From the sequence record SRR9188677_181: a stretch of DNA of 64,000 nucleotides; one strand, written 5' to 3'. Below the pieces are notes generated by a model. That model did not search any database, was not told the origin of the DNA, and saw only the letters and a program-made list of their open reading frames with translations. This document shows positions 268-62,064 of the stretch, piece after piece (positions within the stretch are counted from its first letter, which is position 1; each line of letters opens with the position of its first letter). The position numbers and the translations under genes were made by a program.

Positions 268-1002
268 CTACAATTCCTTTACCTTAATATTTCTAAAAGC
301 CACTCCTTTCGACCATTCTTGAAGGGCAATTCGACCAACAGTATTTTTACCGAATATCGGGAAATTCTTAAAGTAGCTATTACTGACCATTTTTTTCCAA
401 GTTTCAGCGGTTAAATCTTGTTCGGCAGTTAGTACTCCATTCAAATAAAATTCAATTTTCCCGTTGTTTTGTTTGATATTCGATTCGTTCCATTCGCCAA
501 ATGGTTTGAGTTTTGCCATATTCTTTTGAGGTGCAAAACTATACAAACAAGCAGACCATTTAGTGGAATCTTTTAGATAGTCTGCTCCAATATTTTCGTG
601 TTCGAGTAGCTGATATTCTGGCCCAGAAGCCCAAGCCGTCGGAATTGTATCTTGCTCAATTACATTGATAAAAACGCCACTATTGCCAGCTTTTGAGATT
701 TTCCATTCAAATTTTAAATCAAAATTTTTATATACTTTGTCTGAAACCAAATCGCCATGCAGTAAGTTTGCAGAATCTGGATTACACAATAATTCTTCGT
801 TTTTCACCATCCAAGTCGATGGTGCTTTTCCTTGGTTGTATAAATGCCAACCATTCGTGGTTTTCCCATCAAAAAGCAAAGTCCAACCTTCTTCTTTTTC
901 TTGGTCACTTAATTCATTATTAGCAACTTTTTTTTCAGAGCATGAACCTAATAGTGTAACGATTAAACCAAACGAAAGTAAGGAAATGATTGTCTTTTTC
1001 AT
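268..1002 (-). CDS. DUF1080 (3-keto-disaccharide hydrolase/hydratase family) lipoprotein
   Basis: Lipobox LLGSC; typical motifs GWTLLFDGKT, NSGVF, GPEYQLL, GEWN and FRNIKVKEL. Confidence 0.85.
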   Translation of the reverse strand: MKKTIISLLSFGLIVTLLGSCSEKKVANNELSDQEKEEGWTLLFDGKTTNGWHLYNQGKAPSTWMVKNEELLCNPDSANLLHGDLVSDKVYKNFDLKFEWKISKAGNSGVFINVIEQDTIPTAWASGPEYQLLEHENIGADYLKDSTKWSACLYSFAPQKNMAKLKPFGEWNESNIKQNNGKIEFYLNGVLTAEQDLTAETWKKMVSNSYFKNFPIFGKNTVGRIALQEWSKGVAFRNIKVKEL

Positions 1003-1549: not shown

Positions 1550-1588
1550 AATCAATAGGGGCGGACTTAAAGTCCACCCCTATTGATT
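1550..1588. terminator. GC-rich hairpin (bidirectional terminator or REP-like palindrome)
   Basis: AATCAATAGGGGCGGACTT-A-AAGTCCACCCCTATTGATT, a near-perfect inverted repeat between convergent genes. Confidence 0.65.
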
Positions 1589-1620: not shown

Positions 1621-3909
1621 TTACTCCATCACCACCACATCGCTTTTCCTAGATGCTGGCGAAACTGTTAGTTTTTCTATCTTTCCATTTTTCACGATGC
1701 CTTCAATCGTTGTGTTATAAGGTGCATGTAATTTGAATTGAGCATTCCAATCTTTTGGCCAAGCAGGTAATAAATAGATTTTTTTATCATCTACTTGCAT
1801 CAACATTTCTTGTAAACCAATCATTGCTGAACCGCCCCAATTATGGTCGGGCGTCCAGTCGAAAGCTGGTCCCCAAAAAGTAGGAAAACGATGATTTGCA
1901 TCTTTGAATTTCTCTCTTGTCAGTTCTTGTGCTTCTTGTTTCAAGCCTAAACGTGCCGCAAAAATACTGTGTTGTCGCCAACCGATATGCGTTCTATATT
2001 TCTGCACGTGTGGGTCTAAACGATAAGTATTGATAGCCGTTTCAAGATTTGGTTTTCCAAGTCCATAAAGTCCCCAAGGATAAACAGGATACAATTGTGG
2101 CGCTTCTGAATTCTGAATTCTTGCCCACGTTTGTGCTGGCGCAAGGGTTTTATGTCCTTCAATTTCCTGCAAAGGAATCGGCGGAATACGTTTTAACATC
2201 ACCGTCCATTTTTCTTTGCGAGTACTGTCAAGGTATTTTTCAGGAAGTTCGATTACTCTTGATAAAATTACTTTTAATGCTGAAATCACGGTAGTAGAAT
2301 TATAAGTCATCTTATAGCTTTCTGCGGCCGAACTTGGGTAAAAAATGTATTGTCCTTGCTCGTCAAAGGTTTTTACCCCACGTTTTCTGGCTAATTGCTG
2401 ATAATGTTCATCATAAAACGAAAGGCAACTTTCTATAAAAGGCACATATTCCGAAATATTTCTGCCTTCGTATCGCTCGGTTTCTAGCATCATCAAACAA
2501 AATTCCAACACCGTTTCCCATTCATATTCAAGCCAAGCGTTATACTCAATACCCGCATCATAGCCTTCTGGTCGTTTCAAACCATATTCAAAAACATTAG
2601 GTAACCCAAAATTTTCAATTTGTTCGGTAAAACAAGCTCCTGCATGATTCCAATAGACTTTACTCCTTAATTCCGCATTTTTCAGTGAGCGCAAGTAAAA
2701 ATCAAATTGAGGTTTCAGCATATCAAAATCTCCATTTTTAAACATCGGAAAATAAACCAAACGCTGATTTTGGGCAGTCATCGTTCCGCCACCCCAAAGT
2801 CTGAAATCTACCGAAAAAGGATAAATTTTATCGACATGAGCAGGATCAAAAGTAAATAATCCACCATTGAATTTTGTTGGCCATTTACCATAAGCATTGC
2901 AAGCCAATTGATAACGAAAGAGTTGATAATTGCGAGAAACAGTACTGTCTTTGCCTTCGATGTAGATATAACTTCTGTTCCAGAAATTTTTCCACCAAGT
3001 ACTTGTTTGCTGAAAAGCTTCTTTTTTATGATTTTCAGCTTCGGTTAAAATATTATTTAATCCTTTTTGCCATTCTTCAAAAGTTTCGGTTTGCGCAACG
3101 TGCAAAGCAATATCAATTTGCTGTGAACGACTGGCTTTGATACTTTCGAGCGACCAAACTTTAAAGTCAGTATCAGCATATTTCCCGAAAGTATTACCTA
3201 CAACTTTTAGATTTTTTCCTGAGATGATTCCACCAAAAGTATTGTTTTTGATAGGATTATAAAGTTGGTCTTTCACCGAATTCATCCCTTCCATTTTCAC
3301 GGTATAATCAAAAACGTTTTCTAGGTCACTCCTATTTCTGTGGTAAAAAAGAATGTTATTTCCTTGAAAATCAATATTATCTTTAAAAGTTTTTACTTCA
3401 AACTTCTGCTTTACTTTATAAGAATTGGCTCTTAATTCTTTTGAATCCGTGATAAGATGGTCTTCATTTCGCCAAGATTCGAAGGAAGTTTTTAGGGTAA
3501 TGGCTTTGTCACTTTGCAAATCAAGATGAACAAGGGGACGAAAAACATCTACCCAAATTTTCAATTTCGTTTTCCCAGCGGAAATACTCACAAAACCTTC
3601 TTCCAAATGTAATTCTTGTTTAAAATCAGAAGTATTAAAAGGATTGGAAGATAATTGAAGACGCACACGACCAAGCTTGAGGAAAGCATTGTTTTCATCA
3701 AAAGTACCGCTTCTGGAAAGGTAAAAAAGTACATCACCATTTTCAACCCAAACGTTCAACCCAATATCGCCACCGCCACATGGCATTGATTCAGACGAAT
3801 TTTTACTCTGGCTATTCCAAACGACATTGTAATCCCTTATTGATTTATTTTGTGCTTTTAGGCTCAAAAATAAACCAATCAAAACAACTGAAAGAATATA
3901 TTTTCTCAT
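1621..3909 (-). CDS. DUF5703 six-hairpin glycosidase, probable GH139 (alpha-2-O-methyl-L-fucosidase-like)
   Basis: Signal peptide (likely start MRKYIL at 3909; ORF track starts 3921). Motifs NSSESMPCGGGDIGLNVWVE, WGGGTMTAQNQRLVY and WTPDHNWGGS match my recollection of B. thetaiotaomicron BT0984 (GH139). Confidence 0.7.
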   Translation of the reverse strand: MRKYILSVVLIGLFLSLKAQNKSIRDYNVVWNSQSKNSSESMPCGGGDIGLNVWVENGDVLFYLSRSGTFDENNAFLKLGRVRLQLSSNPFNTSDFKQELHLEEGFVSISAGKTKLKIWVDVFRPLVHLDLQSDKAITLKTSFESWRNEDHLITDSKELRANSYKVKQKFEVKTFKDNIDFQGNNILFYHRNRSDLENVFDYTVKMEGMNSVKDQLYNPIKNNTFGGIISGKNLKVVGNTFGKYADTDFKVWSLESIKASRSQQIDIALHVAQTETFEEWQKGLNNILTEAENHKKEAFQQTSTWWKNFWNRSYIYIEGKDSTVSRNYQLFRYQLACNAYGKWPTKFNGGLFTFDPAHVDKIYPFSVDFRLWGGGTMTAQNQRLVYFPMFKNGDFDMLKPQFDFYLRSLKNAELRSKVYWNHAGACFTEQIENFGLPNVFEYGLKRPEGYDAGIEYNAWLEYEWETVLEFCLMMLETERYEGRNISEYVPFIESCLSFYDEHYQQLARKRGVKTFDEQGQYIFYPSSAAESYKMTYNSTTVISALKVILSRVIELPEKYLDSTRKEKWTVMLKRIPPIPLQEIEGHKTLAPAQTWARIQNSEAPQLYPVYPWGLYGLGKPNLETAINTYRLDPHVQKYRTHIGWRQHSIFAARLGLKQEAQELTREKFKDANHRFPTFWGPAFDWTPDHNWGGSAMIGLQEMLMQVDDKKIYLLPAWPKDWNAQFKLHAPYNTTIEGIVKNGKIEKLTVSPASRKSDVVVME

Positions 3910-3925
3910 TTTAAATTGCACGATT

Positions 3926-5035
3926 TTATACTCTTGTTAATTTTACGGGTGCTGTATGATTGGCATTCCACTGGCAGATATACAAGTTTTTGTCTTCATC
4001 CACACAAACATCATGTCCGTGTTGGAAAATAGGATTTGTAGCTTGTAAGGTAGCTTGCAAAATTCCATTTTTATAGGTCGGCGCCGTTCCTCCCGGACTA
4101 GAAACTACTTTATTATTTTTATCCAGAATGGTTACAAAACCAGAATCACCTCCTAATTTTTGCCCGTTCGCATCCTTTGACCAGCATACTCCTGCATAAA
4201 CATTTTCAGCATCAAGTACGGGGCGACAAACGTACATTCCTGGCAAATCTACTCTTTTGATAAACTTTCCATCTAAAGTGAAGAATTTAAAGCAATTTTC
4301 ATCACGAGAAGTACAAATCAATACTGGATTATTTTTGTCTCGTAAATCAATCGCCACGCCGTGGGCATTGTACAAATTATGTTCTTTGTTTGCATTATGC
4401 TGTCCGCCAAAATGGCGAATATATTGACCACGACTATTGTACTGAATGATATAATCTGAGCCATACCCATCAGCTACATAAATATCTCCGTTGGGCGCAA
4501 CGGCTGTTTCGGTTGGCATAAATGGCTCATTATCTTTATAAATACCAATAGTGCGTGGGTGACCGATTGTAAAAATCACTCTCCCGTTCAAATCAGTTTT
4601 TAATACTTGCCCTGCCTGAGGATTCCATTTTCCAGTTTTATCTTGATACCAACCGCAATCTACAATTAATAAAAAATCTTCTCCGCCTTCTTTTGTCAAT
4701 GTCAAACCATGTCCTCCAGGAAAAGCCGTTCCCCAAAAATCAAGAAGTTTGCCAGATTTATCAAAAATTAAAATATTGTTTCTGACATTATCGCCCAACA
4801 TAATCAATCGCCCCTTGCTGTCTTGCACCATTTCGTGGCAATTGAAAATCGGATTTGAATTCGCACTGATTTTTGCCCAACTTTTATCTACTTTATATTT
4901 AAAATCTCCATGACCAATGATTAATTCTTCCGCTTTTTTATCTTGATGCAAGATAGAAAAACCAAAGCTTGAACTTGATAAAGTAGTAGCAGTAGCGAGC
5001 GTTGTATTTTTAATAAAATTTCTTCTGGTTGTCAT
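3926..5035 (-). CDS. Tat-exported six-bladed NHL beta-propeller, PAL (peptidyl-alpha-hydroxyglycine alpha-amidating lyase)-like
   Basis: Tat motif TRRNFIK; NHL blades; motifs GGHGL, YVADGY, NAHGVAID, TSRDEN and HGHDVCVD. Confidence 0.75.
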   Translation of the reverse strand: MTTRRNFIKNTTLATATTLSSSSFGFSILHQDKKAEELIIGHGDFKYKVDKSWAKISANSNPIFNCHEMVQDSKGRLIMLGDNVRNNILIFDKSGKLLDFWGTAFPGGHGLTLTKEGGEDFLLIVDCGWYQDKTGKWNPQAGQVLKTDLNGRVIFTIGHPRTIGIYKDNEPFMPTETAVAPNGDIYVADGYGSDYIIQYNSRGQYIRHFGGQHNANKEHNLYNAHGVAIDLRDKNNPVLICTSRDENCFKFFTLDGKFIKRVDLPGMYVCRPVLDAENVYAGVCWSKDANGQKLGGDSGFVTILDKNNKVVSSPGGTAPTYKNGILQATLQATNPIFQHGHDVCVDEDKNLYICQWNANHTAPVKLTRV

Positions 5036-5061
5036 AGTTATTAGGTTCTGATTGATTGAAA

Positions 5062-6579
5062 TTAAGCTAAAATATCCTTCACTACTTTGCCATGCACATC
5101 GGTCAATCGGAATCTTCTTCCTTGAAACTTATAGGTCAGACGTTCGTGGTCAACGCCCATCAAGTGCATTAAAGTAGCTTGAAAATCATGCACATGAACG
5201 GGGTCTTTTACAATATTATAGCTAAAATCATCCGTTTCTCCATAGCTCAAGCCAGCTTTTACACCAGCGCCAGCCATCCACATGGTAAAGCATCTTGGGT
5301 GATGGTCACGACCATAATCATTCGCACTGAGTTTTCCTTGCGAATAAACCGTTCTGCCAAATTCACCACCCCAAATCACCAAAGTATCTTCTAGCATTCC
5401 TCTTCTTTTTAGGTCTTTGATAAGTGCTGCTGTGGCTTGGTCTGTACTTTTACATTGTTGGGTAATTCCTTGTGGAAGTCCGCCATGTTGGTCCCAACCT
5501 TGATGATATAATTGTACAAATTTTACATCTTTTTCCAACAATTTTCTGGCTAAAAGGCAATTCGCCGCATACGTTCCCGCATCACGACTATCGGCTCCGT
5601 ACAAATCAAATACTTCGTCTGGTTCATCGGCTGTACTCATTACTTCTGGCACAGAAGTTTGCATACGATACGCCATTTCGTACTGTGCAATTCTGGCTTC
5701 TACTTCTGGGTCGGCATAAGTATCGTTTTGTAGTTTATTGAGTTTTGAAAGATAATCCAACATTTCTTTGCGGTCTTTGCCATCATATCCTTCGGGGTCA
5801 TTTAAAAACAAAACAGGGTCTTTGCCCGACCTAAACTGAACGCCTTGATGTTTGGAAGGCAAAAAGCCATTTCCCCACAAACGAGCATAAAGTGGCTGGT
5901 CTTTCTGACCATTTTTAGAAACCAATACAATAAAAGTTGGTAAATTCTGATTATCAGAACCCAAACCATAACTCACCCAAGAACCGATTGACGGTCGTCC
6001 GGGAAGTTGATTTCCTGTCTGAAAAAAAGTAATGGCAGGGTCATGATTAATGGCTTCTGAATGAATAGATTTAATGATACACAATTCATCTACCACTTGT
6101 GCTGTATGTGGTAACAATTCGCTAATCCACGTTTGGCTTTGCCCGTGTTGATTGAATTTAAAAGCAGAAGGCACCATCGGCAAAGCACTTTGGTTGGCAC
6201 TCATACCCGTCAATCTTTGTCCTTTTCTAACAGAATCTGGTAAATTTTGTCCTGCTAAACTGATGAGTTTGGGCTTATAATCAAAAGTTTCAAACTGCGA
6301 AGGACCGCCACTCATAAACAAATAAACTACTCTTTTAGCTTTGGGGGCAATATGTGGCAAAGCCTTTAGAATTTCTTCTTCAAGATTAGGAGTACTTTCT
6401 TGAACAATCTTTTTGGGTGCATCAAAAAAGCCAGATACACCAGTCAGCAATGAGCCAACTGCCAAAGAACCTAAACCCAAAGAGGTTTTGGTCAAGAAAT
6501 TTCTTCTGTCTAATTTATTATGTAAATGGTTGAATTCGGGCGTGTGAAGCCTAAATTCTTCGTCATGATGATGTGCCAT
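5062..6579 (-). CDS. DUF1501 protein (alkaline phosphatase/sulfatase-like fold), Tat-exported
   Basis: Tat motif DRRNFL; DUF1501 motifs LFMSGGPSQFETFDYKP, GWDQH, WGGEFGRT and GRDHHP. Confidence 0.85.
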   Translation of the reverse strand: MAHHHDEEFRLHTPEFNHLHNKLDRRNFLTKTSLGLGSLAVGSLLTGVSGFFDAPKKIVQESTPNLEEEILKALPHIAPKAKRVVYLFMSGGPSQFETFDYKPKLISLAGQNLPDSVRKGQRLTGMSANQSALPMVPSAFKFNQHGQSQTWISELLPHTAQVVDELCIIKSIHSEAINHDPAITFFQTGNQLPGRPSIGSWVSYGLGSDNQNLPTFIVLVSKNGQKDQPLYARLWGNGFLPSKHQGVQFRSGKDPVLFLNDPEGYDGKDRKEMLDYLSKLNKLQNDTYADPEVEARIAQYEMAYRMQTSVPEVMSTADEPDEVFDLYGADSRDAGTYAANCLLARKLLEKDVKFVQLYHQGWDQHGGLPQGITQQCKSTDQATAALIKDLKRRGMLEDTLVIWGGEFGRTVYSQGKLSANDYGRDHHPRCFTMWMAGAGVKAGLSYGETDDFSYNIVKDPVHVHDFQATLMHLMGVDHERLTYKFQGRRFRLTDVHGKVVKDILA

Positions 6580-6582
6580 TTT

Positions 6583-9500
6583 CTATCTTTTGGTTAAAGT
6601 AGCATCAGAATTTAAAATTGTATTCGCCACCACGGCATTGGCTGCAATCAATGAAGTATCCATTTTTTTATCTACTTGATATTGCCCAGCCTTCAAAATA
6701 CCTTTTGCTTTTTGTGGATGTTGCTTAAATTTTGCCAACGATATTTGTTGAAGTTGTACCAATAATGTTACTTCTTTATTCTGTGGCATTCTTCCCGTTA
6801 GCTTTCGATAAGTATCAATAATTGCTTTTCTAACATCTGGAGTTCTTGCCATTTGCTCGCCCATTACTCTACTTGCTTCCACAAAAGTTGGGTCGTTTAA
6901 TGTTACTAAAGCTTGCAAAGGCGTATTAGTTTTTTGTCGCCTCACTACACAAAAGCTTCTTGAAGTAGCATCAAAAGTTGCTAAAGTAGGATTCGGAACG
7001 GCTCTTTTTACAACAACGTATAAACTTCTACGATAGACCGATTTTCCAGAATCTGCTTTATAAGTAGTGTTATTAATTTCCCAAAGTCCTTCTGGTTGAT
7101 AAGGTTTTACACTTTTCCCACCAATGATAGGATTCAACAATCCGCTTGCCATGAGCGCATTATCTCGAATCATTTCTGCCGTCATTCTGTTGACTGGTCC
7201 ATGCGCCAATAAGCGATTTTCAGGGTCTTTTTCTCTCGCTTCTTTCGTCGCACGGGAATCTTGTCTGTAAGTAGCCGACATTACAATCAATTTATTGAGC
7301 TTTTTAACATCCCAACCAGATTCTCTGAAAGTAATTGCCAACCAATCTAACAATTTTGGATGCGTTGGCATTTCTCCTTGGTTTCCAAAATCTTCCGTTG
7401 TTTTTACTAAACCAACACCAAAGAAATTTTGCCAAAAACGATTTACAGCTACTCTTGCCGTCAGCGGATGGTCTTCATGCGTAAGCCATTGTGCTAAGCC
7501 AAAACGATTTTTAGGTAAATTTTCAGGATAACTTAAAATGGATTCTGGCGTATTCGGAAATACTTCTTCCCCAAAAGCATCATAATTACCACGAAGTAAA
7601 ATATGTGCTTTTTTAGGTTTTGGCATTTCTTGCATCACCATCAATTCATCAACTTTTTCTGTTGAATCTGCTAAGGCAGTCCGCAATTGCGTTAATACTT
7701 TTCTTGAATTTTGTAATGCAGGAGAAACTGCTGATAAGTAATATTGCTTCAAAGCTGATACTTCTTGTCCCGAAAGTTGATTGCTATTTTTATTGGCTAA
7801 TCTCGACCAATTAGCTTTTCGAGCCAATATTTTTAATTCATGAGGACTCAACACTCGGTTATAGACCGAAATATCATCTACTTTCCCATTTTTAAAACCC
7901 AAACCACGCCACCAAGCGCCAATTTGCAAACCCGGTTGTACATTAAAACCAAACAAAATATCTTTGGTCAATTGATCTGTTGTGGTTTCCATCGCCATTT
8001 CATCTCCATTTTGATACAACCTAAAACCATTTGCTTTTGACGAACCATCATAAGTAATCGTCAATTGAATCCATTGATTACGAATAACTGGCTGTTTTGA
8101 AATTTTTGTGATGGCATTTGATGGAGCTGTGTGTGCCATATTGATTTCTAAACGATTGTTTTTCAAGTACAAATGATAACCTCTGAAATTATACAATCGC
8201 TCTGCTTGGCTTTTGTGTAGAATTACTCCTTCTTTCAAATCTTTGGGAATATTTACCCAAACACCGACTGAAAATGCTTGAGATTTTCTGAAAACACCAA
8301 CTTGGTTCAAATCCAGAAAAACATCTCCATTCATCAGCATTGATTTTCCGCTTGCTATATTTTCTAAAACAGGTTTATCACCCAATTGTCCCGATTCTCT
8401 TTTCATAACACCCACTTGTTTTGGATTGACTGAATTTTTCAAAGAACCGTCGTCAAAAGTAAAAAATGCCTGTAAACCAGCCTTTGGAATACTTTCTTTC
8501 GCAAGATTTTGATAGCTTTTATTGGCGAGCCACAGCTGAAAATTTTGATTTTCTTGAGTAACTGTTTGAGCTATTACTTTTTCTTGTTGGGCAATTTTGG
8601 TATTGATAAAATGAAGTATTTGTTCTTGTTGCTTGCTTGGCAACATCATCGTTGGGCTTGGCAAAGCATCATCCCAAGAGATTTGTCCCGCTTCTTTTAT
8701 ATTGTTAAAAAAACTGAATAATTGATAATAATTTTTCTGAGAAATAGGGTCATATTTATGGTCATGACATTTGGCACAGCCTACCGAAAGCCCTAAAAAA
8801 GCATCGCCAAAAGTATTGGTTCTGTCAATTACATACTCGGTTTGGAATTCTTCTTCCACAATTCCACCTTCCATATTTTGCTGATGATTGCGGTTAAATG
8901 CTGTGGCAATCATCATTTCTTTACTTGGTTTTGGCATCAAATCGCCCGCCAATTGCCAATGCACAAATTTGTCGTAAGGCAAATTTTTATTGAAAGCATT
9001 AATGACAAAATCACGGTAAGGCGACATATCTCGCAATCTATCCACCGTATAACCGTGTGAATCTGCAAAACGAGCTAAATCTAGCCAATCCACAGCCATT
9101 TTTTCGCCATAATGTGGCGAATTTAGCAATCTGTTTACTTGCTTTTCGTAAGCGTCTGGAGTATTATCTTTTAAAAAAACGTCTATTTCTTGAATTGTTG
9201 GCGGTAATCCTGTTAAATCAAGCGATAAACGGCGCAATAAAATTTCTTTAGGAGCTTCTTTGGAAGGGACTAATTTTTCTTGACTCAATTTCTCCTGAAT
9301 AAAATTATCAATCGGATTTTTCACCAATTCTTCATTTTCTACTTCAGGTACATCTGGCATTTCAGGCTTTACAAAAGCCCAATGTGTTTTATATTCTGCT
9401 CCTTTTTTTATCCATTGAATTAAAATTGCTTTCTCTTTAGCACTTAAACTTAAATGCGATTCAGGAGTGGGCATTATATAATTTGGGTCGTCGGAAATGA

Positions 9501-9810
9501 TTCTGTGAAAGAATTCACTATCTGCCAAATTTCTGGGATTGATGGCTACTTTATTCGGATTTTCTGGTAAATCTGCATAAGCAAATTCGGCTAAATCTAA
9601 TCGTAAACCAGCTTTTTGCTTAGCTTTGTCGGGTCCATGACAAGCAAAACACTTATCTGAAAGAATGGGTTTTACATGAATATTATAATCCAATTCATCA
9701 GGAAGTTCCTTCATGGCAATTTCAACCTCTTCGGGTAATTTCGGCGAACAGGAAAGCAAAGAAAAACTTGCCAAGAAAATTAATATCAACAATAGTCGGT
9801 TCATTATCAT
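6583..9810 (-). CDS. Planctomycete-type cytochrome c / DUF1549 / LamG-like / DUF1553 lipoprotein
   Basis: Lipobox LLSCS (start probably 9810 or 9804; ORF track 9834). CxxCH motifs CFACH and CAKCH; HWAFVKP, WLDLARFADSHG, central LamG-like region (..GKVDDISVYNRVLS), HPLTARVAVNRFWQ and NTPLQALVTLND. Confidence 0.85.
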   Translation of the reverse strand: MIMNRLLLILIFLASFSLLSCSPKLPEEVEIAMKELPDELDYNIHVKPILSDKCFACHGPDKAKQKAGLRLDLAEFAYADLPENPNKVAINPRNLADSEFFHRIISDDPNYIMPTPESHLSLSAKEKAILIQWIKKGAEYKTHWAFVKPEMPDVPEVENEELVKNPIDNFIQEKLSQEKLVPSKEAPKEILLRRLSLDLTGLPPTIQEIDVFLKDNTPDAYEKQVNRLLNSPHYGEKMAVDWLDLARFADSHGYTVDRLRDMSPYRDFVINAFNKNLPYDKFVHWQLAGDLMPKPSKEMMIATAFNRNHQQNMEGGIVEEEFQTEYVIDRTNTFGDAFLGLSVGCAKCHDHKYDPISQKNYYQLFSFFNNIKEAGQISWDDALPSPTMMLPSKQQEQILHFINTKIAQQEKVIAQTVTQENQNFQLWLANKSYQNLAKESIPKAGLQAFFTFDDGSLKNSVNPKQVGVMKRESGQLGDKPVLENIASGKSMLMNGDVFLDLNQVGVFRKSQAFSVGVWVNIPKDLKEGVILHKSQAERLYNFRGYHLYLKNNRLEINMAHTAPSNAITKISKQPVIRNQWIQLTITYDGSSKANGFRLYQNGDEMAMETTTDQLTKDILFGFNVQPGLQIGAWWRGLGFKNGKVDDISVYNRVLSPHELKILARKANWSRLANKNSNQLSGQEVSALKQYYLSAVSPALQNSRKVLTQLRTALADSTEKVDELMVMQEMPKPKKAHILLRGNYDAFGEEVFPNTPESILSYPENLPKNRFGLAQWLTHEDHPLTARVAVNRFWQNFFGVGLVKTTEDFGNQGEMPTHPKLLDWLAITFRESGWDVKKLNKLIVMSATYRQDSRATKEAREKDPENRLLAHGPVNRMTAEMIRDNALMASGLLNPIIGGKSVKPYQPEGLWEINNTTYKADSGKSVYRRSLYVVVKRAVPNPTLATFDATSRSFCVVRRQKTNTPLQALVTLNDPTFVEASRVMGEQMARTPDVRKAIIDTYRKLTGRMPQNKEVTLLVQLQQISLAKFKQHPQKAKGILKAGQYQVDKKMDTSLIAANAVVANTILNSDATLTKR

Positions 9811-9831
9811 AAAATTGAGCAAACAATTCCA

Positions 9832-9896
9832 CAAATCTATAATACAATATATTATTAATATTATACAAAACTGACGAATATTTTCACAAATCCGAC
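9832..9896 (-). promoter_or_regulatory. Promoter of the DUF1553 operon with tandem AraC-type half-sites
   Basis: + strand CAAATCTA (9832-9839; TAGATTTG -7 box on the minus strand), a 22-nt gap, then TATACAAAACTGAC (9862) and TTCACAAATCCGAC (9883), 21 bp apart; divergent AraC gene adjacent. Confidence 0.6.
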
Positions 9897-9944
9897 TTTT
9901 ATGAATATTTTTACAAAAGGAATCAAGCTGATAAAATAAATAAA

Positions 9945-10820
9945 ATGCTCAGGAAATCATTAAAAAATACTTTTTCACTCTTAAATGCAGATTACGTAAA
10001 GTTGAACAAAACTTGGAATTTCAAGCATGTAATTAGCCCATTTTATAGAATGTATTTGATTGATGAAGGCGAAGGTTTGCTTTTTAATGCCCAAGAAAGT
10101 CAAATTCTAGCACCCAATTTTTTGTACTTAGTACCAAGTTTTACCATTTGCAATTATCAATGTAATCACTTCTTGAGCCAGTATTACATCCAATTTATTG
10201 AAGAATCTATTGATGGAAATGCCTTATTTTCGAATCATCGAAAAATCATTAAAGTACCAGCTGAAGCCCAAGATTTTACACATTTTAAAAGACTTTTAAG
10301 CCTGAATAAAGGAAGAGGATTAACGCAATCTAACGACCCAAAAGACTATGAAAAGTATCCAATTCTTCAGGAATTCAAACAGAAAAATGATACTTTAGAT
10401 GCTTCAGCATTCATGGAAACACAGGGAATTATTATGCAATTACTCTCTCGTTTTTTGGCGAAAGAATATTTTGAATTAGCAGAAACGACAGTAATTCCCT
10501 CCAATATTTTAGAAGCCATTAATTACATTCAGACACATCTTGAAGAAAATCTAACCGTTGAACATTTAGCAGACCGTGCCAATTTAAGTCCAGATTATTT
10601 TTCAAGAATTTTCCATGAAAATACAGGAGAAAGACCGCTGAGTTACATACAATTCAAGCGTATTGAAAGAGCACAATTATTGATGATTACTTCAGATTTC
10701 CAACTTCTTGAAATAGCAAACAAAACTGGTTTTGAAAGTTTATCTTATTTTTCAAGAAGTTTCAAAAAAGTAACACAACAAACACCAAGTGAATATAAAA
10801 AGAATAATCGTGTGGTGTAA
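9945..10820 (+). CDS. AraC-family transcriptional regulator
   Basis: C-terminal double HTH (LTVEHLADRANLSPDYFSRIF...GFESLSYFSRSFKKVTQQTPSEYKK). Confidence 0.95.
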   Translation: MLRKSLKNTFSLLNADYVKLNKTWNFKHVISPFYRMYLIDEGEGLLFNAQESQILAPNFLYLVPSFTICNYQCNHFLSQYYIQFIEESIDGNALFSNHRKIIKVPAEAQDFTHFKRLLSLNKGRGLTQSNDPKDYEKYPILQEFKQKNDTLDASAFMETQGIIMQLLSRFLAKEYFELAETTVIPSNILEAINYIQTHLEENLTVEHLADRANLSPDYFSRIFHENTGERPLSYIQFKRIERAQLLMITSDFQLLEIANKTGFESLSYFSRSFKKVTQQTPSEYKKNNRVV

Positions 10821-10874
10821 AACACTTTTGATAAGTGATTAGGAAAAATAATTTCTAAGCAGACTTATTGTTTT

Positions 10875-10896
10875 TTATTTAGATTTAGTCTAATTT
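10875..10896. promoter_or_regulatory. Candidate Fur-family operator upstream of fur
   Basis: Palindrome TTAGA-TTTAG-TCTAA (10879-10893) inside TTATTTAGATTTAGTCTAATTT, about 110 bp upstream of the Fur gene. Confidence 0.45.
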
Positions 10897-11007
10897 CACA
10901 CAATGATTTTAACCTAGATACGATAAATAGGTAATTCTTTGGTAAGTATATTTTACACCGTTCAAAATTATAGGAAAACAATCTATCAATTATATCATCA
11001 ATAGTGC

Positions 11008-11499
11008 ATGGCATTATCAAACATCAATACAGTTAAAAAAACCTTTCAGGAATTTCTTGATATAAAAGGATACCGCAAAACTCACGAGCGATTAACAATC
11101 CTAGAGCATATTTATGAAAGAAATGACCATTTTGAAGCAGATGAATTGTATTTGGCATTAAAACATCTGAATTATCATGTTAGCCGAGCAACAGTTTATA
11201 ATACTTTAGAACTGCTTGTTGAAGCAGAGTTGATTATTAAACATCAGTTTGGAAATAAAATATCATCAAGATATGAGAAAGCTTATGGAAGACGCCAACA
11301 CGACCATGTAGTATGTGTTGATTGCCAGAAAGTTACAGAATTTTGCGATCCTAGAATTCAGAATATACAAAATATGGTTGGAGAGTTTTTTAATTGCGAA
11401 ATTCTTCATCATTCTCTCACTTTTTACAGCAAATGCAAACAAATTGACTGTAGTGAAAGAATGAAGATGAATATCAAAGAACAAAATAATGAAAAGTAA
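11008..11499 (+). CDS. fur: Fur-family transcriptional repressor
   Basis: R.T..R..IL, VSRATVYNTLELL HTH, QHDHVVCVDC metal motif and C-terminal CxxxxC. Confidence 0.9.
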   Translation: MALSNINTVKKTFQEFLDIKGYRKTHERLTILEHIYERNDHFEADELYLALKHLNYHVSRATVYNTLELLVEAELIIKHQFGNKISSRYEKAYGRRQHDHVVCVDCQKVTEFCDPRIQNIQNMVGEFFNCEILHHSLTFYSKCKQIDCSERMKMNIKEQNNEK

Positions 11500-27654: not shown

Positions 27655-29238
27655 TTAGTTAAAAAAAAGGTAAAGTCCAATCATGACAATCGTTAATAAA
27701 AGCCACGAAATCCATACTTTTTTACTTGGTTTTTCAATGCTATTTTGTTCCTCTAAAGTTGCCAGATAAACAGTAGGTGTTTTGTCTAGCAATGAAATAA
27801 TCATGGCTAAAACAGCTAGAAACGCAAAAATGAAAAAAGAAAGTAACAGATAATGTGGCCAAATAGGATATTTATCAGGCGTAAAAACCCAGAGATACAT
27901 TACTCCGACACCCAAACTAAAGACTGAGCCTGCCGAGAGAATGAAGTTTACTGCTTTCTTGGTAGTTCTTTTCCAGAAAACAGTCAATAAAAAAACAACA
28001 GCTAAAGGTGGCGCAATAAAGCCCAAAACCGATTGAAAAACATCGAATAAATTCAAGCCTTTGATACTATCAATTGCCAAAGCCATCATGATGGCAAAAA
28101 AGCACCCAGCAATTACCGTCATACGACCAACCCTGATAATTTCATTATTGGTAGCTTGAGGATTTATTTTCTTCAAATACACATCCATCGTAAAAACGGT
28201 ACTTAAAGAATTTAAAGAAGAACCAATTGTTCCGACAAGTACTGCAATCAGCACAACGATGACCAAACCATTCATACCGGGCGGGAAAAGATTCGTCACC
28301 ATCGTCATATAAGCTTCAGATGGGTCTTTTAAATTCGGGAAAAGTATGTAGCATAAAATTCCTGTCAGGATAAATAAAGGCAAAGAAAGTATTTTAAGCC
28401 AAGCGATAAAGTTCACACCTAATTGACCTTGCTCCAAATTTTTCGCTCCCAATACCGATTGAACCATCGCTTGGTCGGTACAGAAAAAAGCCACTGCCGC
28501 TACTGGATAACCCAATAAAATGGCATACCAAGGATATTTTGGGTCGCTTGCGGGATGAATTAATGTCCAATAATCAGCAGGAACGCTGTGATATACTTTG
28601 GAAATTCCACCGACTTTGATAACACCCAAAACAGTAAGCGTCAGCGAAACAGCAATGAGTAAAATCATTTGGAAAACATTTACTTTAGCAATGGCTTTGA
28701 GTCCGCCTGCAAAAGCAAAAAGTCCAGCAAACAATACCAAGACAATCACAGATTGCCACATCGGAATGCCCAAAATTTGTCTTACTAAAAACCCACCAGC
28801 GAACAAACCTAATGATAACCAAGAGATTAAAATTTTAATCAAGGCATACCACGCTAAAATTGTTTGGGTAGAATCGCCATAGCGTTTTCCCATAAATTCG
28901 GGCATGGTACTTACATTCGCTGCTAAGTATTTGGGTGCAAAAACAATTGCGAGCAAAAACAAAAATACAAAAGCGTACCAATCAAAATTAACGGCTACGA
29001 TTCCAGTACTGTAACCGATGCTGGCAAAGGCAAGTAACATAGACGGCCCCACGTTTGTCCCCCACATATTAAAGCCAATACTTGACCAGCCCAACGATTT
29101 ATTGGCTAAAAATAAGGTTTCTTCTTTATCAGATTTGTCTGAAAAACTTGCTCTATAACCAATAACAATCAATATCACCAAGTAGGAAACAACGATGCTA
29201 TAATCTAAAATGGTTAGGCGTTCTACAATGCTTCCCAT
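27655..29238 (-). CDS. Sodium:solute symporter (SSS family)
   Basis: Multiple TM helices; TMPEFMGKRY, GGLKAI, CTDQAMVQ and SSLNSLSTVFTMD. Confidence 0.93.
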   Translation of the reverse strand: MGSIVERLTILDYSIVVSYLVILIVIGYRASFSDKSDKEETLFLANKSLGWSSIGFNMWGTNVGPSMLLAFASIGYSTGIVAVNFDWYAFVFLFLLAIVFAPKYLAANVSTMPEFMGKRYGDSTQTILAWYALIKILISWLSLGLFAGGFLVRQILGIPMWQSVIVLVLFAGLFAFAGGLKAIAKVNVFQMILLIAVSLTLTVLGVIKVGGISKVYHSVPADYWTLIHPASDPKYPWYAILLGYPVAAVAFFCTDQAMVQSVLGAKNLEQGQLGVNFIAWLKILSLPLFILTGILCYILFPNLKDPSEAYMTMVTNLFPPGMNGLVIVVLIAVLVGTIGSSLNSLSTVFTMDVYLKKINPQATNNEIIRVGRMTVIAGCFFAIMMALAIDSIKGLNLFDVFQSVLGFIAPPLAVVFLLTVFWKRTTKKAVNFILSAGSVFSLGVGVMYLWVFTPDKYPIWPHYLLLSFFIFAFLAVLAMIISLLDKTPTVYLATLEEQNSIEKPSKKVWISWLLLTIVMIGLYLFFN

Positions 29239-30326
29239 TATCTATGATTATTTAAAATGTCTGCACTTAATTGATGCGTTGCCAATACATCGGCAATTTT
29301 TACGGGTAAACCTGTTTGTAAAGATTTATCCATTGCCTGCAATAAAGCCACAGTTCCAACGCCCTCTTTGATGTTTGGATAAGCCATTTTGCCACTTTCA
29401 AGACAATCAGCAAAGTATTCTAAATAATTTTGGTACTCGCCAGCATGGTGACTTTTCCCTTCAAAACGGAAGTAATGTTTTAGCTTATGTTCCCACGTTT
29501 GTACAATTTCTTCGCCTGTATTTGTGGTAACAGCATAGCGTAAATCCATATAATCGGCTTGGCTACAGCCTTCTGTTCCTCTTAAAATACAGCTCATTTC
29601 GCTATCACGCACCACGGGCTGAACTGGACCAGTATATGCACCACTTACTCTTGCGATTCTTCCGTCAGTCGCTTTAAAAATAAAGTGCATAGTGTCCGCA
29701 TTTTTCAAACCACCTTTTAAACCGTTTGAACTCAACATGCCATAACCCATTACTTCTTCAATGTTTGGCAAATACCATCTGATAAAATCTACTGGATGGC
29801 TCAAACCACCATAAAGCCATTTAAAAGCATTTTCTAGCGACCAACCTTTGTCTAAAAACCATCTATGGTCCGCATGATAATAGCCTTCAATCGTGATTAG
29901 TTCACCGATTAATCCCGCTTCAAAGTCGGCTCTTTGCTTTTTCATCGGTTCAAAAAAACGAGAGCTTTGTCCTACAAATACTTTCTTTCCAGTACTTTCT
30001 GAAAGCTCAATTAATTCTTTAGCCTTTGATAAATCATCAATAAAAGGCTTGGTGCAAACAACGTGTTTGCCATGCAATAAAGCTTGTTTGGTATGTTCTG
30101 CATGAAATTTATCGGGCGTATAAATGGCGATAATATCAATGCTTTTATCATCTAATAAATCTTGATATTCAGTTGTGTAATTGTGAAAGTCAAATTCTTT
30201 GGCTCTTTGCTTACACAAATCAATGTTGCGGTCGCATACTTTTACCAGTTCTAATTTCGTACTTGCCAAAGCTGCCGACATCGTACTTCTTCCTTCTCCT
30301 AAACCTAAAATTCCTAATTTCAACAT
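29238..30326 (-). CDS. Gfo/Idh/MocA-family NAD(P)-dependent oxidoreductase
   Basis: N-terminal Rossmann LGILGLG, IAIYTPD..H, GKHVVCTKP and GGLSHPVD; no signal peptide. Confidence 0.9.
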   Translation of the reverse strand: MLKLGILGLGEGRSTMSAALASTKLELVKVCDRNIDLCKQRAKEFDFHNYTTEYQDLLDDKSIDIIAIYTPDKFHAEHTKQALLHGKHVVCTKPFIDDLSKAKELIELSESTGKKVFVGQSSRFFEPMKKQRADFEAGLIGELITIEGYYHADHRWFLDKGWSLENAFKWLYGGLSHPVDFIRWYLPNIEEVMGYGMLSSNGLKGGLKNADTMHFIFKATDGRIARVSGAYTGPVQPVVRDSEMSCILRGTEGCSQADYMDLRYAVTTNTGEEIVQTWEHKLKHYFRFEGKSHHAGEYQNYLEYFADCLESGKMAYPNIKEGVGTVALLQAMDKSLQTGLPVKIADVLATHQLSADILNNHR

Positions 30327-32881: not shown

Positions 32882-33760
32882 TTATTTCTGGAAAATGCTT
32901 TTCAAAAAAGCAGTATTTGCACCAAAATTTCCTTTGACATCTCTTGGTCTATTCGCATCTCTTGAACGCTCTATAACCAACCAGCCAGACCATTTCATTT
33001 TATCTAGCGTGGCTTTTACTTTTTTCATGTCAATTTCAGGGTCATTTTGTAGCCAAACACCATCTTTATTGGTGCAGTGAATCATACAAATTCTATTTTT
33101 ACCCAATATTTTCAACTCTTTGTATAAATCTCTTCCTTCTTTTAAAGGATTAGAAAAATTAAAGTAAATTTTAATTCCTTCAGAACCTATTTCCTTTAAT
33201 AATTTTACTTCTTCACTTGCACTCAACGCTGTTTCTATTCCGATTATAACGCCAGCTTTTTTTGCCATTTCGCCTGCAACTTTTAATCTAGCCACTACCG
33301 AATCTCTCACGGCTGGGTCTTTTTTCAAATCACATTGAACGCCTAAAGGCAAAAAAGCGATTTTTATATTCATCAATTGCATAGTTTTGATACAATCTTT
33401 AATTGATTTTTTGTACTCTTCTCTTCCACAAAATGACTGAGCATAATAACCAGTCATCGCCAATGAAAACATTTCAATGTTCAATTCTTTGGCTTTGTTC
33501 ATAAAAACTGTTCTGATAGAATCATTCGCCAAGGCATTTTCGAATGTTGGGCGTTTGCCCAAACCACCCATGTCAATTTCTACTCCATCTGCTCCGATTT
33601 CCTTCGTCAGCGTCAATGCTCCCAGTTTTTGCCTTTTCAAAAGCATTAAATCAATGACACCGATTTTATATTTTTGATTAATTTGGGCAATACTCTTCAA
33701 TGGCAACGAGCAGAAAAAAGTCATTGTCGTTGCTAAAATCGCTATGGTTAGCTTTTTCAT
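32882..33760 (-). CDS. Exported xylose-isomerase-like TIM-barrel (sugar phosphate isomerase/epimerase family) protein
   Basis: Signal peptide; IGADGVEI, GVIIGIET, ICMIH and WSGWLVIER. Confidence 0.8.
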   Translation of the reverse strand: MKKLTIAILATTMTFFCSLPLKSIAQINQKYKIGVIDLMLLKRQKLGALTLTKEIGADGVEIDMGGLGKRPTFENALANDSIRTVFMNKAKELNIEMFSLAMTGYYAQSFCGREEYKKSIKDCIKTMQLMNIKIAFLPLGVQCDLKKDPAVRDSVVARLKVAGEMAKKAGVIIGIETALSASEEVKLLKEIGSEGIKIYFNFSNPLKEGRDLYKELKILGKNRICMIHCTNKDGVWLQNDPEIDMKKVKATLDKMKWSGWLVIERSRDANRPRDVKGNFGANTAFLKSIFQK

Positions 33761-58767: not shown

Positions 58768-59460
58768 TTAATTTTGCTTAGCGGCTTTGGCAGCGGCTAT
58801 TCTTTGCTCCCATTCCAAGCCTGCTTTTTTCATATCAATCCCTGCGGCAGACAAATAATTGTTGATTTTACCTTTGTATTTTCCGAACCAAGCATGTTTT
58901 TTTTCTGATGATTCAGCATCCATTGCATGTTCACGTGCTTCTGTTAAGTATGCTAATATCTGCGTCTTTTGTGCTTCGCTAAGGTTTGGGAGCATTTCTT
59001 GATAGCCTTTATAAGTAATCGGTAAAACGCCATAAGTCATACCGTCTTTTACTTTTTCTACTTGGCTATCAGAGAGTTTTTTGGATAGATTTTTCAAGTA
59101 TTTTTTATGCAATTTATTCATTGCTAATTCCGCCTCAGATTCTGCTTGTTTTACTTCAGCTTCGCTTTTCTCTTTATCTTCTTTTGCTTTTTCCTTCGCA
59201 ATTTTCAGCTTTTCTTTTCTCAAATCATGGATTTCACTTAAATCACGATATTGTTTGCTAATAATATCTCTTACTTTAATACTTTTTTCTACATCGCTAA
59301 TATCTAGCGATGTTACAATTTTCGCCGCTCTGTCTGTAATCATTTTGGTGTAATTTGCTTCTTTTTGCTCTTTCGTTTGAACATCCTGAGCCCAAAGCAT
59401 TTTCGATGATACAATCATCAAAGTCAATACTACCAATACTTTTTTCGCTACTTTTTCCAT
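58768..59460 (-). CDS. DUF3826 exported helical protein
   Basis: Signal peptide; QVEKVKDGMTYGVLPITY, L.EAREHAMDAESS and HAWFGKYKGKINNYLS. Confidence 0.8.
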   Translation of the reverse strand: MEKVAKKVLVVLTLMIVSSKMLWAQDVQTKEQKEANYTKMITDRAAKIVTSLDISDVEKSIKVRDIISKQYRDLSEIHDLRKEKLKIAKEKAKEDKEKSEAEVKQAESEAELAMNKLHKKYLKNLSKKLSDSQVEKVKDGMTYGVLPITYKGYQEMLPNLSEAQKTQILAYLTEAREHAMDAESSEKKHAWFGKYKGKINNYLSAAGIDMKKAGLEWEQRIAAAKAAKQN

Positions 59461-59716
59461 AATAATATTTGATAATGCTATGCTGTTATTGTATTAATTT
59501 ATCATTCCTAAAAGCTATTAATAAAAGCAATTGGTCTTTTATCTAAGCAATACTACTCTTGATACTTTTTACTCTTCTTTCTTCAAATACAATCAGTATA
59601 TTTTTAAGTTTTCTTACTTATATCTTTTACTGAGAAAATTTGCTAAAACCTACAAAACCTAAATTGATTATAATATCTTATCTTTTTCTATTGTATCATA
59701 ATACATGACTAGAATA

Positions 59717-59781
59717 CAAATTTCATCAATCAAACAGGTATTTTAGTATAAATTTTTACCAACTTAGTATATGATATTGTC
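59717..59781 (-). promoter_or_regulatory. PUL regulon promoter 6 (DUF3826), back-to-back with the araC promoter
   Basis: + strand CAAATTTC-N22-TATAAATTTTTA-N6-TAGTATATGATATTGTC (degenerate -7 box); the divergent + strand -7 box TACATTTG lies at 59802-59809. Confidence 0.6.
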
Positions 59782-59914
59782 ATAATTAAACTAAGAATCG
59801 TTACATTTGGTACTTCGTAGCATAATTTGATAGAATTTTCGTTCTTTTTATGAATCATTACTATAGTCCAACTCTTTATCAGAAAATTTATTTTAAATAA
59901 AAAATATAGCAGAA

Positions 59915-60784: not shown

Positions 60785-60801
60785 GCAAATTTTCATTTCA
60801 T

Positions 60802-60844
60802 TTAGCAGTTTAAAAATCAACATAAACTCTTTTTAAACTGCTAA
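60802..60844 (+). terminator. Hairpin after araC
   Basis: TTAGCAGTTTAAAAA-N13-TTTTTAAACTGCTAA followed by TTTT. Confidence 0.55.
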
Positions 60845-62063: not shown

Positions 62064-62064
62064 T

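Follow-up and report, generated by a model that had tools for sequence, protein, structure and literature searches.

Proteins of the DUF1501 and DUF1549/DUF1553 ("planctomycete cytochrome") families are abundant in Planctomycetes and Verrucomicrobia. Modules combining DUF1501 with PSCyt1/PSCyt2/PSD1 proteins have been described in the Planctomycetes-Verrucomicrobia (Kamneva et al. 2012, PMC3542564; He et al. 2017, PMC5615132); the available text of these reports suggests a link to carbohydrates or electron transfer and gives the function as unknown. As far as they are described there, these modules resemble the locus analysed here in the adjacency of the two families, Tat export of DUF1501 and the domain order PSCyt1/PSCyt2/(Laminin_G_3)/PSD1, and differ from the form found in Bacteroidota, which has two added fixed partners: a Tat-exported PAL-like propeller and a membrane-anchored cytochrome c, here called C3. 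Our comparison of 80 loci shows that DUF1501 and DUF1549/DUF1553 proteins also occur in many Bacteroidota. The initial annotation of the locus, made from the sequence alone, treated the pair as an orphan, and our literature search indeed found no function assigned to DUF1501 or DUF1549/DUF1553 since their description in 2004-2012.

Parts of the module recall other known systems. The PAL of peptidylglycine alpha-amidating monooxygenase (3FVZ) has a zinc site of three His, plus a catalytic Tyr and Arg. The propeller of the module shares its six-bladed NHL architecture and has conserved His, Tyr and Arg residues, but is only 16% identical, is exported by the bacterial Tat route, and is partnered by a cytochrome c instead of a PHM copper monooxygenase. 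Tat export, a c-type heme outlet for electrons and sugar oxidation in the periplasm are combined in the periplasmic complexes of sugar dehydrogenases with cytochrome c and in the 3-keto-glycoside route. The module would share these features, and a gene of the DUF1080 (3-keto-disaccharide hydrolase) family follows the operon, but a catalytic subunit of the FAD, PQQ or GFO type is absent from the module. In marine Flavobacteriia the P450 sugar O-demethylase CYP236A strips a methyl ether that stands in the way of sugar catabolism (Robb et al. 2018, PMC6292453; Brott et al. 2023, PMC10033563). As the available text of these reports describes it, the CYP236A system lies among CAZyme genes and is cytoplasmic, with a P450, ferredoxin and reductase; the module is periplasmic and has c-type hemes, and no P450 is found in the stretch analysed, although a close CYP236A homolog adjoins the propeller of one related locus (L024). 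The last gene of the operon encodes a close homolog of BT0984, the GH139 enzyme of the Bacteroides thetaiotaomicron RG-II system (PMC12282258), with all of the catalytic and -1 subsite residues given in the available text conserved. An RG-II-type PUL is likewise present. BT0984 presumably has no adjoining heme/Tat module.

Organization of the locus

We analysed a 64,000-nt stretch of DNA (the window; sequence record SRR9188677_181) from Arcicella rosea, a freshwater bacterium, in which an RG-II-type PUL lies alongside the module. Four minus-strand ORFs follow each other at 6583-9834, 5062-6579, 3926-5035 and 1621-3921; ATG 9810 is the probable start of the first and ATG 3909 the start of the last. 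Domain searches, which covered 35 ORFs of the window, bear out the gene content initially proposed. The first gene (6583..9810) encodes a lipoprotein with two c-type heme motifs and the domains PSCyt1, PSCyt2/DUF1549, Laminin_G_3 and PSD1/DUF1553 (Pfam 45, 284, 65.5 and 335.5 bits). It is followed by genes for a DUF1501 protein (5062..6579; PF07394, 529 bits) and a six-bladed NHL/PAL-like propeller (3926..5035), both with predicted Tat export, and for a GH139 2-O-methyl-alpha-L-fucosidase homolog with a Sec signal peptide (1621..3909; DUF5703_N, 383 bits).

The four genes are flanked by a divergent AraC-family regulator gene on the plus strand (9945..10820; HTH_18, 78.8 bits, and HTH_AraC) and by a hairpin. 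The intergenic gaps read from the sequence (3, 26 and 16 nt) are too short to leave space for internal promoters, which agrees with the single promoter proposed in the initial annotation. The AT-rich spacer of 134 nt shared with the AraC gene (9811..9944) contains, about 21 nt upstream of ATG 9810, a TAnnTTTG-type motif that resembles what we take to be the Bacteroidota -7 consensus. A sigma-70-type scan, which does not model Bacteroidota promoters, gave the promoter no further support: its site at 9889..9860 is not above chance, and neither promoter-like sites (40 versus 32.3 +/- 4.9 in shuffles) nor terminator-like sites (5 versus 7.5 +/- 2.2) are in excess. The hairpin 3' of GH139 (1550..1588, minus strand) has a perfect 18-bp stem, a 3-nt loop and a T-rich tract after it; its folding energy (dG -38.2 kcal/mol, z = -8.5) was equalled by none of 200 shuffles, and it is a probable terminator. 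The gene for a DUF1080/3-keto-disaccharide-hydrolase-family lipoprotein (268..1002, minus strand; PF06439, 136 bits) lies 618 nt downstream of GH139, beyond the hairpin, and is kept in this position in loci L001-L004. It is a conserved neighbour, probably on a separate transcript.

The GH139 enzyme and the RG-II locus

GH139 enzymes release 2-O-methyl-L-fucose from chain B of RG-II. With residues 30-765 aligned, the product of 1621..3909 matches the BT0984 structure 9HYQ at E = 8e-269; both 9HYQ and 9HMB are GH139 structures given in the available text of PMC12282258, in which N412 is assigned the role of catalytic base and E561 that of the acid. Both residues, together with Q411, W683, D723, N729, N639, E641, W403 and F378, are identical in the aligned window protein (residues were matched with the chain index equal to the residue number minus 1). 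By its sequence this protein is thus a true GH139 of the 2-O-methyl-L-fucosidase type, as had been proposed. The PUL in the window comprises SusC/D, GH138 (NCBIfam 1529.8 bits against a cutoff of 1300), an apiosidase-type GH140, GH141_M, a BT_1020-like propeller, GH95, GH78, GH2, DUF3826 and a PelZ-like lyase. Judged by this gene content, SusC/D plus an RG-II enzyme set, the PUL is of the RG-II type; the assignment of its families to RG-II is in part our presumption.

Conservation of the module in Bacteroidota

We compared the neighbourhoods of 80 Bacteroidota loci out of 163 confirmed relatives, leaving singleton ORFs of 110-199 aa unannotated. The heme protein, DUF1501 and the propeller form a conserved unit in these loci. 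In 65 of 71 informative loci the propeller gene directly follows that for DUF1501, and the heme protein and DUF1501 occur together in 53 of 58. Most often the fourth gene is C3, which lies downstream in 50 of 67 informative loci, and the median gaps across related loci are 3, 49 and about 0 nt. C3 has a DUF2231-cytochrome c-LRR architecture with invariant membrane histidines, a CxxCH motif and a Met. Natural fusions join the same elements: the 816-aa protein P0264 consists of C3 (33% identity over 432 aa, E = 3e-59) with the propeller (E = 2e-35) after it, and P0248 and P0257 combine PSCyt1 and the propeller in one protein.

Arcicella has no C3 at the module locus, and GH139 takes its place. 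This arrangement persists in five Arcicella genomes of four species, and the AraC-module-GH139-DUF1080 block is intact in L002, L003 and L005 although the upstream flank there is not the RG-II PUL. A link between the module and GH139, expected from the initial annotation, is weak in the narrow sense, since GH139 occurs within 10 kb of the propeller in 6 of the 80 loci, from two lineages (the five Arcicella and one Chitinophagaceae MAG). It holds more broadly for fucosidases: there are 11 independent contexts with GH139, GH95 or GH29 no more than 10 kb away, two of them with 6-deoxyhexose catabolic genes as well, and these families account for 14 of the 25 context-dereplicated GH-type genes near the module, an enrichment tabulated by hand against an assumed background rate. 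Of the 80 loci, 16 have an orthologous AraC gene (cluster 4). It is divergent from the module and upstream of it except in two Runella loci with the propeller alone, L009 and L013, in which it runs in the same direction as the propeller.

The proteins of the module

The lipoprotein and Tat targeting initially assigned to the proteins agree with their sequences. The heme protein has a lipobox cysteine and two CxxCH motifs, both of which are present in all 55 full-length orthologs examined; a PDB search recovered no sequence relative of it. Twin-arginine motifs are found on DUF1501 and the propeller and are conserved in both family alignments, the RR of DUF1501 being invariant (alignment A2). 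DUF1501 is 80-88% identical and the propeller 70-78% identical between orthologs of different orders.

In the window the Tat-exported DUF1501 gene is separated from the PSCyt1/PSCyt2/PSD1 gene by 3 nt. Complex prediction among the module proteins, suggested in the initial annotation, places DUF1501 against the DUF1553 (PSD1) region with a score of 0.75, compared with 0.00 for the best of three controls; among 78 solved complexes 51 attain the score mark behind this value, as do 2 of 108 mismatched pairs. Contacts agree by at least 94% between runs, with a partner pLDDT of at least 81. The run, made without alignments, comprised three chains, of which two were parts of a single protein, and so departs from the tool's calibration. 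The DUF1553 region is thus predicted to bind DUF1501. The AF2 model of DUF1501 is poor (pLDDT 49.4) and unusable for fold comparison. DUF1501 has invariant metal-site-like motifs, and a profile search against the PDB returned eight matches, all of them sulfatases or ENPP4 aligned over one shared motif and none significant (E = 0.07-0.9). The formylglycine motif of type I sulfatases, (C/S)-x-(P/A)-x-R, has no match in the window DUF1501 protein.

The propeller model is confident (pLDDT 91.6) and shows a six-bladed NHL fold whose top PDB match is PAL 3FVZ (E = 1.6e-13, TM 0.69 on the target, 16% identity), in line with the fold initially named; the family profile aligns with PAL in one global stretch (E = 5.8e-22). 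H225 and H341 are invariant, and at least 90% of sequences retain H67, H109, Y166, Y191, R232 and R244. None of the 35 window ORFs scanned contains a PHM-type copper monooxygenase domain. Nor did domain searches recognise a cofactor domain of a dehydrogenase or oxygenase (FAD, PQQ, P450, Cu) in the module.

Neighbouring genes

Immediately downstream of the propeller lies GH139 in Arcicella, a GH29-like gene in L024 and L025, and GH95 in L027; a 6-deoxyhexose oxidative pathway is encoded in L065 and rhamnose catabolic genes in L011. In L024 alone, the propeller operon adjoins a CYP236A-type P450 and a ferredoxin-reductase-type flavoprotein. The best PDB match of this P450 is the 6-O-methyl-galactose demethylase CYP236A2 (6G5O, E = 2.6e-194; next match 3.8e-46). 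A P450/ferredoxin/ferredoxin reductase system was found in none of the 35 window ORFs and only beside the L024 propeller. In L025, again a single locus, the propeller and GH29-like genes are followed by genes for a PhyH-family dioxygenase, a Zn-ADH and an esterase. We considered these last two as a formaldehyde-detoxification pair, but the ADH scores under every NCBIfam cutoff and the esterase has no match. The recurrent Zn-ADH c22 was likewise rejected as the known demethylation-cluster ADH: its top matches are RspB and polyol dehydrogenases, and 8H2A/8H2B are absent from its 11 matches.

Most of the 80 contexts contain no carbohydrate genes. Housekeeping genes surround the Chitinophaga, Chryseolinea and Flectobacillus loci and those of a synteny group of 12 Sphingobacteriaceae/Daejeonella loci. 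L068 and L079 have classical sulfatase genes in the vicinity of the module, and the available text of He et al. 2017 (PMC5615132) places sulfatase genes near PSCyt genes.

Possible function

We favour, with a probability of roughly 0.4, a module that acts as a cytochrome-c-coupled periplasmic redox unit on fucose-type sugars, possibly methylated ones. The four genes would form one operon in Arcicella, with GH139 occupying the last position of a Bacteroidota-wide module. The heme lipoprotein would complex with the Tat-exported DUF1501 through its DUF1553 region, its LamG domain serving as a sugar-binding element, and the propeller would be a metal-dependent catalytic partner that normally works against C3. 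Because Arcicella has no C3 at the locus, the PSCyt1 heme of the lipoprotein would there carry the electrons. The substrates would most likely be L-fucose-type 6-deoxy sugars or their methyl ethers, freed in the periplasm by GH139, GH95 or GH29. We infer the redox role, the direction of electron flow and the substrate, and favour an oxidation of the substrate whose electrons pass out via heme c. The anatomy of the operon, the conservation of the unit, the fusions, the conserved residues of C3, the complex prediction and the fucosidase, 6-deoxyhexose and AraC genes nearby speak for this reading, as does the persistence of the Arcicella block beside other upstream flanks. Against this reading stand the presence of GH139 in only 6 of 80 loci, the lack of a cofactor domain and the mostly non-carbohydrate contexts; moreover, the alkaline-phosphatase superfamily, to which the non-significant DUF1501 matches belong, is hydrolytic rather than redox-active.

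The joining of GH139 to an orphan heme module in Arcicella provides a concrete sugar to test as a substrate. The four-part unit, the propeller-cytochrome c fusions, the predicted DUF1553:DUF1501 complex and a short list of candidate substrates (2-O-methyl-fucose, L-fucose and RG-II fragments), in cultured, aerobic strains, open an old question to ordinary experiments. A methylated sugar as the substrate would show how aerobes handle RG-II sugars that hydrolases on their own do not clear.

The housekeeping neighbours in most synteny groups, the unusually high conservation of DUF1501 and the propeller, and the iron-related genes flanking the Arcicella block would also suit a role independent of sugars, such as general periplasmic electron transfer or metal/heme handling, with GH139 having displaced C3 in a genus-specific rearrangement. 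We consider this rather unlikely: in 16 of 80 loci the module has a substrate-type AraC as its partner, the heme protein contains a carbohydrate-binding-type LamG domain, fucosidase families recur in 11 independent contexts, and five Arcicella genomes of four species share the GH139 arrangement.

The initial annotation proposed heme-dependent O-demethylation followed by lyase cleavage. In such a periplasmic oxidative O-demethylase, a heme centre would hydroxylate the methyl ether of 2-O-methyl-fucose or another sugar and the propeller would cleave the hemiacetal to fucose and formaldehyde. This is possible but improbable. It agrees with the joining of GH139 to the module in two lineages, the P450 and dioxygenase-ADH-esterase genes beside the L024 and L025 propellers, the PAL-like fold with its conserved His/Tyr/Arg set, and the periplasmic location of all parts, GH139 included. 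However, GH139 is absent from 74 of 80 loci, domain searches found no oxygenase domain in the module, the P450 and PhyH contexts are each confined to one locus, the c22 Zn-ADH is unlike the known demethylation-cluster ADH, and the L025 ADH and esterase are not identifiable. In addition, CxxCH hemes of this type usually carry electrons and do not activate oxygen, and a formaldehyde hemiacetal should collapse without a lyase. More doubtful still is a new enzyme class, in which DUF1553:DUF1501 would oxidise a fucose-type methyl ether or other blocking group in a c-type-heme-dependent manner in the periplasm, leading to its removal or oxidation, and the propeller would cleave the oxidised intermediate. 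With such a system DUF1501, DUF1549 and DUF1553, which are very large orphan families, would gain a first function, and their mirroring of glycoside hydrolases in oxic waters would be explained.

Least probable is that DUF1501 is the catalytic core, an ester hydrolase of the alkaline-phosphatase superfamily that removes sulfate, phosphate or a similar group from decorated fucose-rich glycans with the heme protein as a scaffold or maturation partner: the eight sulfatase and ENPP4 matches, the metal-site-like motifs and the sulfatase genes near the module and near PSCyt genes point that way, but every match has E of at least 0.07, the formylglycine motif is missing, we know of no sulfate or phosphate on RG-II, and the three or more conserved c-type hemes and the C3-propeller fusions would be left unexplained.

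The iron-related genes beside the Arcicella block are Fur in the window and genes for a TonB receptor and a PepSY_TM protein in L002, L003 and L005.

A conserved, proposed redox module with GH139 as its fourth gene in Arcicella

Four minus-strand genes are tightly packed in the Arcicella rosea window: a heme lipoprotein (6583-9834, with the ATG taken at 9810), a DUF1501 protein (5062-6579), a propeller (3926-5035) and a glycosidase (1621-3921, ATG taken at 3909). Divergent from them, at 9945-10820, is an AraC gene. Reading the junctions with these start codons yields gaps of exactly 3, 26 and 16 nt, as the initial annotation had approximately stated, and because of this close spacing a single transcript over the four genes is likely. 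An 18-bp hairpin is found 3' of the last gene (-38.2 kcal/mol, z = -8.5; equalled by 0 of 200 shuffles). The sigma-70 consensus promoter and terminator scan, which is not designed for Bacteroidota promoters, gave nothing above shuffles or chance and failed to pick up this long hairpin. The lipoprotein combines a lipobox cysteine with two CxxCH motifs, and its Pfam domains are PSCyt1, PSCyt2/DUF1549, Laminin_G_3 and PSD1/DUF1553. The second and third proteins both carry a twin-arginine motif; the second is a DUF1501 protein (529 bits), and the domain search gives just a weak NHL-repeat match for the third.

The fourth protein, which contains a DUF5703_N domain, matches PDB entries 9HYQ (E = 8e-269) and 9HMB (E = 1.5e-90), the two GH139 structures reported in a 2025 JBC paper (PMC12282258). 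The proposed base N412 and the proposed acid E561 are identical in the alignment, as are Q411, W683, D723, N729, N639, E641, W403 and F378 (BT0984 numbering). Judged by these matches and by the identity of all these key residues, the gene, initially called GH139-like, is a true GH139.

With the propeller as anchor, a scan of a genome collection confirmed 163 relatives, of which the best 80 loci, all from Bacteroidota, were examined. Across them 887 ORFs were called and clustered; annotation covered 86 cluster representatives and, among the singletons, the 192 with 200 aa or more but not those of 110-199 aa. DUF1501 lies directly upstream of the propeller in 65 of the 71 loci with enough upstream sequence (the exceptions are L009, L013, L024, L025, L027 and L064), and the heme protein and DUF1501 are both present in 53/58. 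Directly downstream of the propeller, 50 of 67 loci, including L072 and L074, have C3, a membrane-anchored cytochrome c of ~440 aa. Median gaps along the unit are 3 nt (n = 63), 49 nt (n = 67) and about 0 nt (n = 60). The module recurs in other genomes, and its proposed association with GH139 is weak there: the glycosidase occurs within 10 kb of the propeller in just 6/80 loci, five from Arcicella and L023, a Chitinophagaceae MAG in which it lies upstream. The Arcicella operon is therefore a variant with GH139 in the usual C3 position. No C3 was found in the 64-kb window, and none of the 120 C3 homologs listed was an Arcicella-named protein.

Upstream of the main module, seven loci (L016, L018-L021, L039 and L054) carry a second, paralogous set comprising a DUF1549/DUF1553 protein, a DUF1501 protein (44-47% identity) and, in addition, a C3-like protein; the propeller position is taken by a xylose-isomerase-like TIM barrel in three of them (L021, L039 and L054).

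Genomic setting in Arcicella

Arcicella rosea DSM 21163 (L001) has a propeller gene 100% identical to the one in the window. Domain annotation places a large RG-II-type PUL on the minus strand at 12619-59460, with SusC/D, DUF3826, a PelZ-like lyase, DUF6298, a GH140-type apiosidase and a BT_1020-like propeller, as well as two GH2, two GH78, GH141, GH95 and a GH138 alpha-galacturonidase (1529.8 bits against a cutoff of 1300). Together these families form an RG-II-type set. A GFO/IDH/MocA oxidoreductase (29238-30326) and a xylose-isomerase-like TIM barrel (32882-33760) also lie within the PUL. The operon sits at the PUL edge, on the far side of Fur, DHDPS-like and symporter genes. Three further Arcicella genomes (L002, L003 and L005) have an upstream flank made up of genes for a TonB receptor and for a PepSY_TM protein, and the AraC-module-GH139 block is unchanged despite this different flank; GH139 is thus part of the block and not merely of the adjoining PUL.

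Every Arcicella genome has iron-related genes next to the block (Fur at 11008-11499 in the window, the TonB-dependent receptor and PepSY_TM protein in the others), and these could be connected with the module's need for heme. Just past the operon hairpin, at 268-1002, lies a lipoprotein of the DUF1080/3-keto-disaccharide-hydrolase family, kept there in Arcicella L001-L004, which hints at keto-sugar chemistry. At 61119-63999 a ParA-type ATPase, a 288-aa ORF without a family and a Rep3_C initiator-like gene are found on the 397-kb contig. Megablast of 59000-64000 against plasmids gave no match; the region may mark the origin of a secondary replicon, or else an integrated element.

Properties of the module proteins

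The C3 protein combines DUF2231, a membrane domain, with PSCyt1 and leucine-rich repeats. Five invariant membrane histidines, one CxxCH motif and one Met are common to 16 aligned copies, suggesting a membrane heme-b-type anchor bearing a periplasmic heme c. Three long propeller homologs are natural fusions: in P0264 the propeller (E = 2e-35) comes after C3 (33% identity over 432 residues, E = 3e-59), P0248 resembles P0264, and P0257 has an extra F5/8 type C domain. These fusions argue that the propeller works directly with the C3 cytochrome. In seven loci (L016, L018, L019, L022, L039, L054 and L058) a di-heme protein of the MauG/MbnH/CCP family directly follows C3 (Pfam CCP_MauG; NCBIfam MbnH-like at 188 bits, under the cutoff). 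Enzymes of this family often modify partner proteins or reduce peroxide.

The propeller family (101 representatives at E <= 1e-30) retains 70-78% identity across orders, with H225 and H341 invariant and H67, H109, Y166, Y191, R232 and R244 nearly so. The best fold match of its AF2 model (pLDDT 91.6) is the lyase PAL (peptidyl-alpha-hydroxyglycine alpha-amidating lyase, 3FVZ); the family profile matched PAL in one global stretch, and the match was lost with fragment queries. Orthologs of the DUF1501 protein share 80-88% identity between Cytophagales, Sphingobacteriales and Chitinophagales, above expectation for vertical descent, which implies either extreme constraint or recent spread. Its AF2 model reaches a pLDDT of just 49.4, and the sole protein-atlas lead was DUF1552, another orphan family (0.80). 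Against PDB profiles it gave only sulfatase or ENPP matches, none significant, and a type I sulfatase is rejected because the formylglycine motif is absent. The heme lipoprotein has no PDB relative.

When DUF1501 was modelled in complex with the DUF1549 and DUF1553 regions, the prediction scored 0.75 (best of three controls, 0.00), a level attained by 51 of 78 solved complexes and by 2 of 108 mismatched pairs. Agreement between runs covers at least 94% of contacts, partner pLDDT is at least 81, and the predicted interface sets DUF1553 residues 852-1075 against DUF1501 residues 178-307. Because the job used three chains with alignments unused, unlike the calibration of the tool, the prediction supports but does not show binding of DUF1501 by the DUF1553 region.

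Sugar context and possible function

The best-supported reading is that the module is a periplasmic, cytochrome-c-coupled redox unit acting on fucose-type sugars. Fucosidase families occur near it in 11 independent contexts: GH139 in Arcicella and L023; GH95 in Runella L009/L013 (with SusC/D), Puia L027 and L028, and L039/L054; GH29 or GH29-like genes in L011, L024, L025, L065 and L068. By hand tabulation they account for 14 of 25 context-dereplicated GH-type genes (binomial p = 1.5e-8 against an assumed background of 10%). In four lineages a GH139, GH29-like or GH95 gene comes directly 3' of the propeller. Arcicella would then have coupled the redox module to GH139, an enzyme releasing 2-O-methyl-fucose. 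Further sugar genes neighbour the module in L065 (an MR/MLE dehydratase, an FAH-family hydrolase, a fuconolactonase-like protein, SDRs and lactate dehydrogenase; pathway genes with an NCBIfam match are all under equivalog cutoffs) and in L011 (rhamnose genes, with an aldolase/SDR at 1386.8 bits against a cutoff of 1240).

As for the chemistry, both the cytochrome outlet and the DUF1080 neighbour are consistent with a dehydrogenase route. Housekeeping genes adjoin the module in most synteny groups, and a sugar-independent role fits these numerous contexts. The O-demethylation raised initially agrees with the contexts that hold GH139 or the P450; against it, the module lacks an oxygenase and no formaldehyde-handling genes were identified. 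The P450 adjoins the propeller in L024 (Persicitalea jodogahamensis, 3046-11110); its best PDB match is 6G5O (E = 2.6e-194, 648.7 bits; second best, E = 3.8e-46), which is CYP236A2, the 6-O-methyl-galactose demethylase (PMC6292453). A ferredoxin-reductase-type flavoprotein lies beside it. In this freshwater member of the Cytophagales a very close homolog of the marine 6-O-methyl-galactose demethylase P450 sits among GH29 genes.

Pairing of DUF1501 with PSCyt/PSD1, at times with Laminin_G_3, was already described with function unknown in PMC3542564 and PMC5615132. Literature searches yielded no assigned function for the module, no propeller or C3 partners and no fucose link, and likewise no function for DUF1549, DUF1553, PSCyt2 or "PSD1 domain". 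No paper found names DUF1501 and DUF1553 together or links 2-O-methyl-fucose to demethylation; among the papers searched, PSCyt and fucose co-occur only in He et al. (PMC5615132), in unrelated passages. A 2026 fucoidan paper mentions neither cytochromes nor DUF1501, DUF1549 or DUF1553.

The recurrent Zn-ADH cluster c22 is rejected as the ADH of 6-O-methyl-galactose demethylation clusters: it has RspB and polyol dehydrogenases as top matches, and 8H2A/8H2B are absent from its 11 matches at E <= 1e-30. An ADH and esterase in L025 are not supported as a FrmA/FrmB-type formaldehyde pair, since the ADH is under all cutoffs and the esterase is without an NCBIfam match. GDSL esterases possibly tie the module to acetylated sugars: a propeller homolog (P0139, 733 aa) is fused to a GDSL esterase domain, and GDSL esterase genes lie downstream of the module in L077 (12544-15679).
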